From NCBI GenBank assembly GCA_963827685.1, contig CAWHBU010000004.1:817708-881707 (forward strand): a DNA stretch of 64,000 nt, read 5' to 3'. This document shows, one piece after another, positions 2,873-57,953 of the stretch (its first letter is position 1; each line of letters opens with the position of its first letter). This DNA is from an uncultured delta proteobacterium. GTDB lineage: Bacteria > Desulfobacterota > BSN033 > UBA1163. Below the pieces are notes generated by a model. It was not told the origin of the DNA. It did no database searches and saw nothing but the letters and a program-made list of their open reading frames with translations. The position numbers were made by a program, and so were the translations under genes.

Positions 2873-4342
2873 TCACTTCAATAGTTCCAATAATCCCTGG
2901 ACCGGCTCCTGGATAAGATCCAAAACCGGTCCTGGATACAAACCAATAAAGAGCACGGCGATCGCCAGGGTTACCAAAATCACCGTTTCCCGAGTTGTCA
3001 CATCCCAGAAGGTGTGCTCTTTCCTTGTTTCACCGAAAAGCGTGGATTGGACTACCCAGAGAATGTAGATGACAGTAAAAAGGAGACCGGCGAACCCGAT
3101 CACCGAAACCGCTGTGTTTTCCCGGAAGGTACCGATCAGGATGAGGATCTCGCCCACGAAATTGTTGAGCCCCGGGAAACCCATAGAGGCAATAGCAAAG
3201 AACAAGAAAAAGGCACTGAAGACAGGCATTTTTTTCCAGAGCCCGCCGAGATCGGATAAGTCCCTGGAGTGGGTCCGTTCATCTAACATCCCCACAAGAA
3301 TAAAGAGTGCCGAGGTGGTCAGCCCGTGGTTGACCAGTTGCAACACGGCACCCGAAAGGGTCAGGATGTTCCAGACCGCAATTCCGATCACCACGAGGCC
3401 CATATGAGCAATGCTTGAGTAAGCCACCAAGCGTTTGATATCCTTTTGCGCCAAAGCAATCCAGGCTGCATAGAATAAGCCAGCCAATCCCAGCCCGAGC
3501 AGGAGAGGGACAGAGAGCTTAGCTGCCGTGGGGAAAAGTGGAAAGGCAAACCGCAATAGTGCATACGCACCCGTCTTCAGGAGTAAGCCAGCCAGAATAA
3601 CACTCCCTGCCGTAGGTGCTTCTGTATGGGCATCGGGCAGCCAGGTATGGACAGGAATGATAGGGACCTTGATTGCAAAAGCTAACAGGAACGCGGCGTA
3701 GAGCAATATTTCAGCAGACCATGAGAGAGGCGTATGGATCAATTGAGTGAAGGAGAAGGTGTAAGTCCCGGTCTGACTGCCATGGATGAGGTAGAGGCTG
3801 ATCAATGCGATCAACATCAGCAGGCTGCCGGTCATGGTGAAAATGACAAATTTGAAGGTGGCATAAATTCGTCTTTCATGACCCCATATCCCGATGAGGA
3901 AAAACATGGGGAAGAGTTGGACTTCCCAAAACAGGTAGAACAAGAAGAGATCTGTGGAGAGAAAGACACCCAGGATTCCGGTCTGCATGATGAGTAAGAA
4001 GAAGTGGAATGCTCCCACACGGTTTTCAATTTGCCTCCACGATAGGAGCACACAGAGGATGCCGAGAAATGCCGTGAGCAGGATAAGCATCAAGCTGATG
4101 CCATCCAGGCCAAGGCTATACCGTATGCCAAAGCGTTCTATCCAGGGAAAATCCTCTACCAATAACCATCTGACTCCGGTCGCGGATTGCGCCTTGAGAT
4201 CCATGGTCAAGAGGGAAAGGATCAGGAAAAAATCTGCGAGGGTAATGGCGAAGCTGGTCCATCGGCACAGTTTCGCATGACGCCAGGAGAGAAGCACCAG
4301 CAGGCTGCCGAAAAAGGGAAGAAATACAATTAAAGAAAGCAT
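2873..4342 (-). CDS. nuoM: NADH-quinone oxidoreductase subunit M
   Basis: [38 protein letters not shown]-type motif, [13 protein letters not shown]; start uncertain (4342 or 4372). Confidence 0.93.
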   Translation of the reverse strand: [489 protein letters not shown]

Positions 4343-56907: not shown

Positions 56908-56980
56908 AAAATCGGTAATGGGTCAGTTTGAATTATGAACGGTATGAGAATTTATGAGAAATAAATGATGACGATTTTGC

Positions 56981-57009
56981 TTGACAAAAAAAATTGAATT
57001 ATTTATATT
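56981..57009 (+). promoter_or_regulatory. Near-consensus sigma70 promoter of the NYN cassette
   Basis: TTGACA(56981-86)-N17-TATATT(57004-09). Confidence 0.75.
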
Positions 57010-57015
57010 TTTATT

Positions 57016-57077
57016 AATCATCCCCCTGGTGACCTCGTGTCCCAGGGCCCCGGGTACCCAGTGGTCCCGGGTTTTTT
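57016..57077 (+). ncRNA. Candidate small structured RNA/leader: two iso-structural bulged hairpins ending in a U-tract
   Basis: CCCUGG-U-GAC-CUCGU-GUC-CCAGGG (57024-47), CCCGGG-U-ACC-CAGU-GGU-CCCGGG (57049-71), then UUUUUU. Confidence 0.55.
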
Positions 57078-57089
57078 ATTTTGGAGATT

Positions 57090-57707
57090 ATGAAAAAGGT
57101 CGTGATCCTCATCGATGGGTTTAATGTATATCACGCTCTTCAAAAAGATGAAAATCTTCATAAATACAAATGGTTAGATTACTGTAAATTGGCAAAATGC
57201 TTTGTTCCTTCCAAAGATAAGATTGTAGATGTTTATTACTTCACAGCTTTTGCTCATTGGAATCAGCGGAAAATGGCCAAACACAAAATTTATCTAAAAG
57301 CTTTAACAATGGCTGGGGTTAAAGCCGTATTTGGAAAATTTAAGGATAAAGACCATAGATGTAGAATTTGTGGTGAAGGATATTCAACATTCGAAGAAAA
57401 ACAAACCGATGTGAACATCGCTATAACCCTCTTCCGTCTTGCCATTTCAAATGATTTTGATACGGCAATTTTGATTACTGGGGATACTGACCTTGTTCCA
57501 GCTGTAGAAGCGATTAGAAGAACTTTCCCGGATAAACAAATAGGAGTTGTAGTGCCAATAGGAAGAAAGGCAAAGGAATTAATAGATGTTTGCGATTTTC
57601 ACATGAAAATGAAGGAAAAACATCTCAGAACGAGTCAGTTCCCGGACACTATCGTATTGGACCCGCAAAAAAATATTGTTTTGCAAAAACCATCTAACTG
57701 GACTTAG
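57090..57707 (+). CDS. NYN domain (LabA/DUF88, PIN-like) putative RNase
   Basis: ILIDGFNVYH, CRIC, EEKQTDVNIA, ITGDTDLVPAV; AT-rich (18/60 GC in line 57181). Confidence 0.88.
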   Translation: MKKVVILIDGFNVYHALQKDENLHKYKWLDYCKLAKCFVPSKDKIVDVYYFTAFAHWNQRKMAKHKIYLKALTMAGVKAVFGKFKDKDHRCRICGEGYSTFEEKQTDVNIAITLFRLAISNDFDTAILITGDTDLVPAVEAIRRTFPDKQIGVVVPIGRKAKELIDVCDFHMKMKEKHLRTSQFPDTIVLDPQKNIVLQKPSNWT

Positions 57708-57859
57708 GTTTTTTTTCCATCTGGAAATAGAATTCAGGCAATTGGTCAAGTTCAATTCGAAGAATAGCGGCAGCGACCTAAGATCATAAAGGCATTTCAG
57801 ATTTTAGATTTCAAATCTGCAATCCCTGACTGCAACAGGTGCGATTTGAAATTAAAAAA

Positions 57860-57953
57860 TTCCGCATTCCGCAATCCCCACTCCGAATTTGGTTTGTCGC
57901 CCCATCTCCTTATCACCTCATCTCCCTATCCCCGTGTCGCCCTGTCACTCTAT
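57860..57953. repeat. 7-bp and 8-bp degenerate tandem repeats
   Basis: attccgc units, then tcgcccca-tctcctta-tcacctca-tctcccta-tccccgtg-tcgccctg-tcactcta; similar 8-mers at 53197-53244. Confidence 0.6.

Follow-up and report, generated by a model that had tools for sequence, protein, structure and literature searches.

Organisation of the locus

The window, by which we mean the whole stretch of 64,000 nucleotides that was analysed, contains a compact module of approximately 700 bp, consisting of a predicted short structured RNA and a gene for an NYN-domain nuclease (Table 1). The gene upstream is co-directional and encodes an HD-domain protein; 108 nt (56908–57015) separate its stop codon from the start of the RNA. 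A Pfam scan describes the neighbours of the module as an HD_5 protein and a protein of 446 residues that has no Pfam family.

Table 1 Features of the RNA–NYN module, with positions numbered along the window
Feature	Position	Strand	Description or basis
Sigma-70-type promoter of the small RNA	56981..57009	+	TTGACA-17-TATATT, 11/12 consensus matches
-35 element TTGACA	56981-56986	+	Sequence reading; spacer of 17 to the -10
-10 element TATATT	57004-57009	+	Sequence reading
Two-hairpin small RNA, ~60 nt	57016..57077	+	AAUCAUC tail, P1, C linker, P2, U6
5' tail AAUCAUC	57016-57022	+
Conserved single-stranded AUCAUC	57017..57022	+	80 aligned RNAs
Hairpin P1	57024..57047	+	CCCUGG-U-GAC / loop CUCGU / GUC-CCAGGG
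Linker C between P1 and P2	57048	+	Sequence reading
Hairpin P2, predicted intrinsic-terminator stem	57049..57071	+	CCCGGG-U-ACC / loop CAGU / GGU-CCCGGG
U6 tract of the predicted terminator (T6 in DNA)	57072..57077	+	Sequence reading
GGAG ribosome-binding site of the NYN gene	57083..57086	+	Sequence reading
NYN-domain nuclease gene, 205 aa, PADLOC HEC-09 family	57090..57707	+	ATG start at 57090

An earlier, sequence-only reading of this DNA had proposed a near-consensus promoter, which is indeed present, and two tandem hairpins, each with a 6-bp stem, a U bulge and a 3-bp stem, which occur in the window as it described them. The U6 tract and the NYN gene after it are also in place, the tract lying one base earlier than had been implied. 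The RNA of the window folds with a z score of -3.84, and none of 200 shuffled sequences folded equally well. General-purpose scans were less informative. A promoter scan of the region returned two sites against 3.7 expected, which alone is not significant, and a simple terminator scan left hairpin 2 off its list, although the stem and T6 are readable and folded; we suspect that the bulge caused it to be missed.

Conservation and covariation of the RNA

A covariance model, R2, was built from the RNAs of NYN homologues, with metagenome loci forming the hold-out set. Such a model of the regions upstream of NYN homologues had been suggested as a check on the sequence-only reading, and its outcome is favourable: the hairpins are conserved and covary, 75 of the 80 genome loci, which span many phyla, have the RNA adjoining a NYN homologue, and 16–17 of the 18 pairs show compensatory changes. 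The order of promoter, structured RNA, terminator and RNase gene had been correctly recognised, and is kept across phyla with strong covariation.

Even on a plain MAFFT seed, RNAalifold finds compensatory changes in 12 of 15 pairs. In the training alignment, 93.1% of cells are paired and 17/18 pairs are compensatory, with a covariation score of 0.791 (0.189 when shuffled, 0.04-0.12 when slid). The hold-out alignment gives 90.5% paired, 16/18 compensatory pairs and a score of 0.642, against 0.193 shuffled. All 10 model pairs of P1 are compensatory in both alignments; the CC..GG at its base is conserved and its other positions covary. P2 has 7 of 8 compensatory pairs in training and 6 of 8 in the hold-out, and its base CCCG..CGGG is conserved.

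The conserved unpaired nucleotides in the 80 aligned RNAs are the AUCAUC tail (A 55, U 64, C 64, A 59, U 59 and C 79 by column) and the single C linker. In the first six columns 3' of P2, T is found in 62 to 74 of the 80. Neither a conserved U bulge nor conserved loops were found among 78 distinct RNAs, where both vary. Protein contacts, if there are any, must therefore involve the bases of the hairpins, the tail and the linker.

Two features that the sequence-only reading took from the window do not extend to the family. The bulged geometry is one of them, since P2 is an unbroken 9-bp helix in 31 of the 78 distinct RNAs and a bulged 6+3 helix in 6. The other is the view of the hairpins as repeats of one another: P1–P2 similarity within a locus averages -0.075, compared to -0.124 between loci, which is no sequence-repeat relation. 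The hairpins of the window resemble each other more closely than those of any other locus (0.32, rank 1 of 77 distinct loci), and likeness of sequence is limited to the window and its close kin. A few loci carry two tandem RNA units (L049, L068, L072, L186, L187 and L191).

Alternative pairings were also considered. The minimum-energy fold of the window contains a helix between the tail and the Shine-Dalgarno (SD) sequence, which was rejected as a conserved element at -3.81 kcal/mol against -4.13 kcal/mol for shuffled tails over 139 loci. No conserved alternative (antiterminator) pairing was found.

Distribution and specificity

R2 matches the RNA of the window with 62.6 bits (E 1e-10 to 1e-11), and this is the sole significant match in the 5.2-Mb genome. 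With filters off, R2 finds the RNA in 2 further genome loci. In the hold-out set it is present in 77 of 80 metagenome loci, and the remaining three have no upstream DNA, making 77 of 77 among those with such DNA. On viral contigs, R2 places the RNA 5' of the NYN match in 13 of 23 loci examined. The full set of loci numbers more than 1,100, from 558 genome and 564 metagenome stretches. Four of five other genomes have exactly one match each, adjacent to NYN, and the fifth has none at E <=0.1. R2 detects no RNA beside more distant relatives, which comprise L062, L079, L192 and L198 as well as proteins encoded on small enterobacterial plasmids (35% identity), a clade with a longer leader. In a second NYN subfamily, one locus (L208) has a clear twin hairpin, and six further loci give a mixed picture by eye.

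The window hairpins have no match in Rfam at E up to 10. For seven related loci searched at E up to 1, the sole match at the RNA site is Hrs13 in L033, at chance level (22.9 bits against 52, E 0.23), and membership of a known Rfam family was rejected. A REP-like genome-wide repeat was also rejected, as a degenerate pattern and R2 each find one real genomic copy. Similarly, a conserved neighbouring protein gene is not the partner, since no neighbour gene is common to more than five of 81 loci. In the literature, no report was found of an NYN nuclease with a type III toxin-antitoxin or an RNA antitoxin. Among the matches listed there was also no report of a bacterial NYN-domain RNA motif, and nothing relevant on LabA/DUF88 with an sRNA.

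The NYN protein

The protein matches Pfam NYN (PF01936) over residues 3-169 with 59.1 bits (cut-off 24.2, E 9.3e-16), the only other Pfam match being weak and below cut-off. It also matches the PADLOC HEC-09 model PDLC04163 almost end to end, residues 1-204 aligning with profile positions 1-202 of 203 (E 5.2e-58), and is the single HEC-09-type gene in its genome. The acidic motifs noted earlier (DGFN, EEKQTDV and GDTD) are intact, and an alignment of 27 homologues shows no variation in their acidic residues, D9, E102, E103, D107, D132 and D134. From these residues, the nuclease looks active.

The AF2 model has a pLDDT of 95, and its best PDB matches in Foldseek are 2qip (E 3.2e-10) and the NYN domain of MARF1 (E 1.3e-5). 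The clade to which the window protein belongs has an extra β-hairpin with an invariant CxxC (C91-x2-C94) and a C-terminal extension. The protein is predicted to homodimerise through this hairpin. The homodimer prediction scores 0.61, compared to 0.05 for the best control; of 30 proteins whose structures are pairs of one chain, 20 attain that mark, as does 1 of 23 with single-chain structures. Three runs agree in >=97% of contacts, with a partner pLDDT >=90. C91 and C94 of both copies are in contact in the prediction, these figures being model confidence and not measurement. The predicted homodimer fits an arrangement with one RNA hairpin per protomer.

Expression signals across the family

A promoter matching at least 9 of 12 consensus positions lies within 50 nt 5' of the RNA in 107 of 150 RNA loci, compared to 4 of 137 control windows. 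In 60 of the 107 promoter-bearing loci, the end of the -10 is 5-7 nt 5' of the A of AUCAUC. The RNA is 5' of NYN on the same strand in approximately 95% of loci. From the end of the model to the start codon the median distance is 16.5 nt, and 73 of 134 loci have an SD-like word 4-16 nt 5' of the start codon. The distance is <=6 nt in 14/134, and at these loci the ribosome-binding site may be provided by the 3' arm of P2. In four loci (L015, L026, L043 and L079) P2 has no U-run and a third, terminator hairpin follows. It follows that P2 is kept for something besides termination, and that termination ahead of the gene is kept as well. The promoter, terminator and spacing together predict that expression of NYN is set low by the terminator before its gene.

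The RNA as a separate gene

In six loci (L060, L066, L072, L075, L081 and L124) the RNA lies on the opposite strand to NYN with a TTGACA/-10 promoter of its own. L073 is a weaker case, and L207, which is partly a by-eye reading, is weaker still. Opposite-strand loci, of which there are at least seven, occupy five separate places on the NYN tree, and an RNA so placed with its own promoter is a separate gene and not merely a leader.

Searches anchored on the RNA covered 31 relatives and 101 genomes of an Omnitrophota order. The RNA is present in 10 of these genomes, and an intact adjacent NYN gene in six of the 10; the count of genomes with RNA only is biased by this anchoring. In three genomes (G008, G015 and G017) NYN has been lost by deletion or truncation and the RNA kept, and in G458 another gene stands in the place of NYN. 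The converse, a NYN of the window's clade without the RNA, was not seen in the NYN-anchored sets of genome and hold-out loci. An RNA that survives the loss of its gene is likewise to be expected of a neutral relic. Taken together, the opposite-strand RNAs, the occurrence of one RNA per NYN per genome and the asymmetric loss make a partner that acts in trans more likely than a simple attenuator.

Mobile and defence context

The module is inserted at a site whose content varies between genomes. In three genomes of the same genus there are just 2-101 nt at this position, and eight others carry different cargo of 2.2-4.2 kb, including a C13 peptidase-domain protein, a histidine kinase with a response regulator, and small ORFs without a family. 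The idea of defence-like cargo at this hotspot was rejected, as the cargo families of the relatives are not defence-like.

Relatives of the NYN protein occur in 427 plasmid records, some of them on enterobacterial plasmids of 3.5-4.3 kb, and at 23 loci on viral contigs. Among 74 upstream neighbours, 10 are helicases or proteins of the restriction-modification, CBASS or Hma kind. They include an HmaA helicase 5' of L072 and L081 and a type I S subunit 5' of L005 and L044. A helicase-related protein lies 5' of L207. As judged by Pfam on its neighbours (HD_5 and the 446-residue protein), the window module is not inside Hma or another defence system.

Interpretation

We consider it somewhat more probable than not that the two genes form a type III-like module, in which the RNA and the nuclease are a candidate RNA-antitoxin/RNase pair similar to AbiF/RCd22. 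The strong promoter would initiate transcription at about 57016/57017, to give a transcript in which an unpaired AUCAUC tail precedes the stacked hairpins P1 and P2. This would end at the P2/U6 terminator, yielding a small RNA of about 60 nt. The NYN gene would be carried by read-through transcripts alone, so that the RNA should be greatly in excess of the protein. The RNA would bind NYN and keep the nuclease inactive, its conserved hairpin bases, together with the tail and the one-base linker, being placed at or near the active sites. Should transcription stop or the RNA be destroyed, for example on phage infection or loss of the element, the short RNA would decay, and the freed NYN RNase would cut cellular or phage RNA. 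By analogy, the logic would be that of type III toxin-antitoxins and of AbiF/RCd22, with another toxin fold and another RNA. It counts against an antitoxin that the hairpins are generally not sequence repeats, unlike those of classical type III antitoxins, that loops and bulge vary, and that R2 detects no RNA beside the more distant relatives.

Other explanations have to be weighed against this. The hairpins could be a cis-acting 5' leader of the NYN mRNA, an attenuator whose terminator sets the level of enzyme while the short RNA has no function; perhaps NYN itself relieves or reinforces the terminator by binding or cutting its own leader. Most loci have a layout that would suit such a leader, with the RNA directly 5' on the same strand in about 95% of them and the start codon a median of 16.5 nt past the model end. 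The P2 3' arm is seemingly the sole possible ribosome-binding site at some loci, and the RNA of AbiF likewise acts in cis via its terminator, according to the relevant passages of PMC12373285. The idea nevertheless appears unlikely, because attenuation of NYN is impossible where the RNA diverges from the gene under a promoter of its own (at least seven loci, in five places on the tree), there is no conserved antiterminator pairing, and the tail-to-SD helix is not conserved over 139 loci. Moreover, a near-consensus promoter followed immediately by a strong terminator would give chiefly short RNA, and P2 is retained where another hairpin terminates. A plainer proposal is that the element is an ordinary terminator or insulator, ending transcripts of the upstream HD-domain gene or shielding an inserted gene, and that the likeness among loci is incidental. 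It does have a stem and U-run 108 nt past the stop of a co-directional gene, but this explanation is scarcely credible given the conserved unpaired AUCAUC tail and single C linker, the covariation of both hairpins across many phyla, the promoter directly 5' of the RNA, and the presence of a single copy per genome that is always beside the NYN family whatever the neighbours.

A different role for a trans-acting RNA is that NYN needs it, as a scaffold, a sensor displaced by phage or a natural substrate, so that the RNA is not an inhibitor. The 1:1 association, the covariation and the independent promoter are equally compatible with this, no NYN of the clade was observed to lack the RNA, and in the portion of bioRxiv 10.1101/2024.01.29.577857 that deals with it, cloned HEC-09 has no noted toxicity. 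We regard such a cofactor as unlikely. A promoter and terminator that give RNA in excess over a scarce nuclease are typical of antidote and toxin pairs; the nuclease has repeatedly been lost where the RNA survives, which is more easily reconciled with a protein that is costly or toxic than with a harmless subunit of an RNP; and the loops are too variable for a conserved guide.

Returning to the RNA-antitoxin/RNase pair, a bolder form of the proposal, which we put forward tentatively and with some doubt, is that the RNA and the HEC-09 NYN are a new and very widespread class of RNA-antitoxin/RNase system, functioning in abortive infection or addiction and present in more than 550 species-level genomes of many phyla. 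A symmetric NYN dimer would be held by a four-cysteine site, with one CxxC from each protomer; one hairpin would clamp each protomer, and a pseudo-substrate would be provided by the AUCAUC tail. A looser design of promoter, one or two hairpins and terminator may also be present 5' of other NYN subfamilies (that of L208, L014 and those of enterobacterial small plasmids), in which case control by RNA would be a general feature of bacterial NYN nucleases.

The NYN/PIN-like fold serves RNA surveillance in eukaryotes, in MARF1 among others. If our proposal is correct, RNA-antitoxin systems would be extended to this fold. It would also provide a second component for the PADLOC candidate HEC-09, suggesting why the single-gene view lacked a phenotype, and would bring to light a conserved family of bacterial RNAs that Rfam 15 lacks. 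Searching for covarying hairpins 5' of stand-alone nucleases is a productive route to hidden RNA components. The module is easily testable, being only about 700 bp and having relatives on small plasmids of laboratory-tractable enterobacteria.

Comparison with known systems

In type III toxin-antitoxin systems (ToxIN, CptIN and TenpIN), an RNA antitoxin and an endoribonuclease toxin share one promoter, and a terminator fixes the RNA:toxin ratio. The antitoxin comprises 2-5.5 identical repeats in tandem, and the systems are linked to phage defence, plasmids and phages. The NYN module has the same order of promoter, RNA, predicted intrinsic terminator and RNase gene, the divergent loci excepted, and similar links to phage defence, plasmids and phages. 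It differs in the fold of the toxin, NYN being none of ToxN, CptN and TenpN by Pfam; in its RNA, which is one unit of two unlike hairpins with no tandem direct repeats; and in the divergence of this RNA from the nuclease gene at some loci.

Among NYN nucleases, MARF1 and VPA0982 (2qip) share the fold and the acidic active-site residues with the window protein, whose clade is set apart by the extra β-hairpin with its invariant CxxC and by the C-terminal extension. We know of no partner RNA gene for MARF1, VPA0982 or LabA. The name LabA was met here only as a source annotation.

A close parallel in layout is RCd22/AbiF of Clostridioides difficile. The passages of PMC12373285 on this system describe a promoter, two hairpin motifs, a Rho-independent terminator, a ribosome-binding site and the toxin, in which RCd22 neutralises AbiF in cis and in trans through direct binding, and in which the short RNA is the main transcript and the toxin mRNA arises from read-through. 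A related protein, PbAbiF, is cited there as a homodimer bound to two copies of its ncRNA. The shared order, ending in an RNase-type toxin, is matched by a homodimer in both, with RNA in PbAbiF and predicted here for NYN. The proteins differ, in that AbiF is Abi_2/HEPN while Pfam assigns the window protein to NYN (PIN-like). So do the RNAs: that of the window matches neither the abiF motif RF03085 nor any other Rfam family, and in its family the hairpins abut with one base between them, the second being the predicted terminator. Neutralisation has been demonstrated for RCd22, in the account given there, whereas for the NYN RNA it is proposed.

It is worth comparing the module finally with HEC-09 as originally described. 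Payne et al. (bioRxiv 10.1101/2024.01.29.577857) treat it as a single protein gene, and their main text uses neither "ncRNA" nor "non-coding". As they report, one clone was made, with about 150 bp of native upstream DNA and an extra IPTG-inducible promoter; it gave no protection against any phage tested, and toxicity is noted solely for HEC-03 and HEC-04, not for HEC-09. The construct as described there probably contained the RNA, and the null result therefore leaves toxicity undecided and gives the defence reading no help. The window protein fits the HEC-09 model over its full length, and L072 and L081 have HmaA upstream, as Hma-embedded genes would be expected to. The window gene differs from HEC-09 so described in being paired with a conserved RNA gene, outside a defence system.

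The promoter, RNA and gene in the window

The sequence-only reading had taken a promoter, GC-rich hairpins, a U tract and a gene with NYN motifs to be a candidate RNA-antitoxin (type III-like) or defence module. Its description of the sequence is borne out by direct reading, and the motifs DGFN, EEKQTDV and GDTD are all present in the NYN protein. The 91-nt stretch containing the hairpins has a fold z of -3.84, with 0 of 200 shuffles folding equally well. Taken alone, the promoter scan for the region is not above expectation (2 found, 3.7 expected). Hairpin 2 was not listed by a simple terminator scan of the window, an absence probably explained by its bulge.

Features of the small RNA and the NYN gene, in window positions
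Feature	Position	Remark
Promoter	TTGACA 56981-86, 17-nt spacer, TATATT 57004-09	Promoter scan 11/12
5' tail AAUCAUC	57016-22	Starts the G+C-rich segment, seven bases past TATATT
Hairpin 1 (P1)	57024-47	
Linker, single C	57048	
Hairpin 2 (P2)	57049-71	
T6	57072-77	
GGAG	57083-86	
NYN ORF, 205 codons, ATG start	57090-57707	Pfam NYN E 9.3e-16

The non-coding stretch after the NYN gene carries a dispersed short repeat (57843-57894). Searching the window's genome with 181 nt around this repeat turned up 24 more partial matches, most over that segment, and similar short matches are also found in relatives.

Distribution and covariation of the RNA

The NYN protein has 796 relatives at E <= 0.001 among 873 candidates, and almost all of the listed ones have about 205 residues. 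A scan of one genome per species gave at least 558 stretches encoding relatives. The best 80 loci, taken for analysis, span Omnitrophota, Planctomycetota, Ignavibacteria, Acidobacteriota, Desulfobacterota, candidate phyla and others. On inspection by eye, the 130 nt upstream of these genes follow a common order of promoter, AUCAUC-CC, hairpin, GG-C-CCCG, hairpin, CGGG, U-run and start codon.

Building a covariance model from the regions upstream of NYN homologues, as the sequence-only reading had proposed, revealed conserved, covarying hairpins across phyla. Two successive models, R1 and then R2, were used in a search space of 664,557 bases, both strands. R2 gave 80 matches at E <= 1, of which 76 are the window and 75 loci, each directly adjoining the NYN gene, and the other four are three second tandem copies and one stray (E 0.68). 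When filters were switched off, L046 and L064, of the five loci missed, matched at the expected place with E 0.002-0.003 and a third (L073) had E 0.09; the last two (L062, L079) have variants recognisable only by eye. In a hold-out set of 80 metagenome loci, none used in model building, R2 matched 77, the remaining three being without upstream DNA.

Covariation in the two sets, whose alignments were fitted to the model, which favours structure
Set	Cells paired	Compensatory pairs	Covariation score	Shuffled	Slid
Training	93.1%	17/18	0.791	0.189	0.04-0.12
Hold-out	90.5%	16/18	0.642	0.193	0.07-0.13

A MAFFT alignment of 22 loci analysed with RNAalifold, which is independent of the model fitting, shows compensatory changes in 12 of 15 pairs and agrees in direction with the pair counts of both sets.

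The stems covary freely, and loops and bulges vary among RNAs. In 80 aligned RNAs the conserved features are the unpaired tail (A 55, U 64, C 64, A 59, U 59, C 79), the paired bases CC..GG at the base of P1 and CCCG..CGGG at that of P2, the one-base linker (C in 69) and the U-run after P2. Among 78 distinct RNAs, 31 have P2 as a continuous 9-bp stem and 6 show the 6+1+3 shape seen in the window. P1 and P2 are generally not repeats of one another, the window being the most self-similar of 77 loci. The twin hairpins of the same geometry with a U bulge, on which the sequence-only reading had laid weight, are therefore a local feature of the window.

A separate gene tied to NYN

Rfam 15 has no match at the RNA site in the window (E up to 10), and in seven related loci (E up to 1) the sole match at its place is a chance-level one in L033. 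The covariance model scores a single copy as significant in the 5.2-Mb genome of the window; of five other genomes, four contain exactly one, adjoining NYN, and the fifth has no RNA match at E <= 0.1. No flanking protein family is common to more than 5 of 81 loci.

Of 150 RNA loci, 107 have a promoter scoring at least 9/12 in the 50 nt upstream, compared with 4 of 137 control windows. In 60 of the 107 the -10 element stops 5-7 nt short of the A of AUCAUC, a spacing which puts the conserved tail at the predicted 5' end of the transcript.

The RNA is on the strand opposite NYN in six loci (L060, L066, L072, L075, L081, L124), with weaker cases in L073 (E 0.09) and, partly by eye, in Thermus oshimai L207 (E 0.73). 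In all six divergent loci read (L060, L066, L072, L073, L075, L081) the short intergenic space holds a separate TTGACA-type promoter for the RNA, and by eye the divergent RNA of L207 has one too. Divergent-RNA loci occupy five separate places on a FastTree of 88 NYN proteins, which is midpoint-rooted with supports uninspected and leaves out the disrupted L057 as well as most loci of metagenome or viral origin. In L015, L026, L043 and L079 the U-run is absent after P2 and present after a third hairpin that comes next; in L049, L068, L072, L186, L187 and L191 a tandem pair of two-hairpin units precedes NYN. In L049 the first tandem copy is without a U-run, and in L073 (about 3760-3900) the divergent variant adjoins, by eye, the apparent 3' end of a tRNA gene.

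Genomic context and loss

Same-genus genomes retain the flanking HD-domain and 446-aa genes around the module site (56908-57949; loci L166-L177). The gap between these genes is only 2-101 nt in three genomes (G006, G018, G019) and holds unrelated cargo of 2.2-4.2 kb in eight; the module has therefore been inserted at a site that varies within the genus. Among the cargo are a protein with a peptidase C13 domain, a histidine kinase together with a response regulator, and small ORFs assigned to no family.

In the closest relative, G008, promoter and RNA are retained at the same site and NYN is gone, homology to the window ending a few bases past the U-run. Genomes G015 and G017 have an almost identical RNA at another site, followed by only a few NYN codons, and in G458, from an Omnitrophota-order sample, the RNA is followed by a different gene. 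By eye, this last gene (L215, 380-1100), which follows an intact RNA, resembles a nucleotidyltransferase (GG..D.D motif), and an ORF just upstream of the orphan RNA in G017 (L179, 606-1004) resembles a PIN/VapC-type toxin. When 132 genomes were searched by RNA and protein, the RNA was found in 10, with NYN in 6 and alone in 4, the RNA-only count being biased by how these genomes were found. The informative half of the loss pattern is the absence of NYN-only loci: in the NYN-anchored sets, no NYN of the window protein's clade was found without the RNA.

Relatives of about 35% identity are encoded on 427 plasmid records, which include many ColE1-type plasmids of 3.5-4.3 kb; relatives also occur in 23 viral-contig loci. 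Upstream neighbours match PADLOC at E <= 1e-10 in 13 of 74 cases, or ten once one NYN paralogue and two RmuC-like proteins are set aside; these ten include HmaA (L072, L081) and type I S subunits (L005, L044).

Other NYN genes also have upstream structure. E. coli and Klebsiella ColE1-type plasmids of 3.5-4.3 kb (L204-L206) carry a 35%-identical NYN gene and a divergent helix-turn-helix gene. Their upstream stretch is longer and strongly structured (z = -6.68), with compensatory differences between plasmid types and a terminator just before the start codon. R2 does not match this structure, in which one hairpin is preceded by AUUCUUC, a tail reminiscent of AUCAUC. A distant 189-aa paralogue in G009 (L208, 380-530) follows its own promoter, two hairpins sharing the word UCAUACGUGAC at their tops, and a U-run; six other loci of this subfamily give a mixed picture by eye. 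Locus L014 (400-505) has, upstream of its HEC-09-type gene, a second, divergent NYN gene (PADLOC HEC-09, E 1.2e-17), in front of which stand a consensus promoter and a single long hairpin with its U-run.

The NYN protein

PADLOC identifies the window protein as HEC-09, a candidate defence gene, over its full length (E 5.2e-58), the sole one in the genome. The defining paper (bioRxiv 10.1101/2024.01.29.577857) describes a single NYN gene inside Hma systems which, cloned with about 150 bp of native upstream DNA, gave no protection against any phage tested; "ncRNA" and "non-coding" are both absent from its main text.

The AF2 model (pLDDT 95) best matches, among solved structures, the NYN protein 2qip and the MARF1 NYN domains. 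Residues D9, N12, E102, E103, K104, D107, D132 and D134 are invariant in 27 homologues, as are C91 and C94. A two-copy prediction scored 0.61 against 0.05 for the best control, past the tool's mark; among proteins of solved structure, 20 of 30 that are pairs of one chain reach this mark, as does 1 of 23 that are single chains. Runs agreed in at least 97% of contacts, with partner pLDDT at least 90. The lowest-error contacts of the predicted dimer are C91-C91' and C94-C94', which suggests a possible four-cysteine site across it. A symmetric dimer of this kind, set opposite an RNA with two stacked hairpins, is an attractive if inferred picture.

Interpretation and known systems

We regard the pairing of RNA and NYN as well supported and very probably real. 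For its function, an RNA antitoxin is the best of the alternatives, and on balance we lean towards it from the sequence comparisons. The near-consensus promoter and immediate terminator would yield chiefly the short RNA, with little nuclease made. Among 134 co-directional loci, the NYN start codon lies a median of 16.5 nt beyond the model end; where it is within 6 nt (14 loci), only the G-rich 3' arm of P2 could, in our reading, be the ribosome-binding site. A cis leader, or autoregulation, is unlikely, and a plain terminator highly improbable. Neither leader nor terminator, in pure form, can account for the divergent, third-hairpin and tandem arrangements, which a trans-acting RNA needing to be encoded beside its nuclease can explain. 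A cofactor or substrate RNA we consider slightly less probable than the leader.

Our literature search found nothing relevant linking NYN with type III toxin-antitoxin systems or RNA antitoxins. The order and logic of classical type III systems are the same as in the RNA-NYN module, whereas their repeat arrays and toxin folds differ from it. By analogy, the closest functional counterpart is AbiF/RCd22. As described for that system (PMC12373285), a sigma-A promoter is followed by an RNA with two abiF hairpin motifs, a terminator, a ribosome-binding site and the toxin, and the short RNA is the main product, neutralising the toxin in cis and in trans by direct binding.
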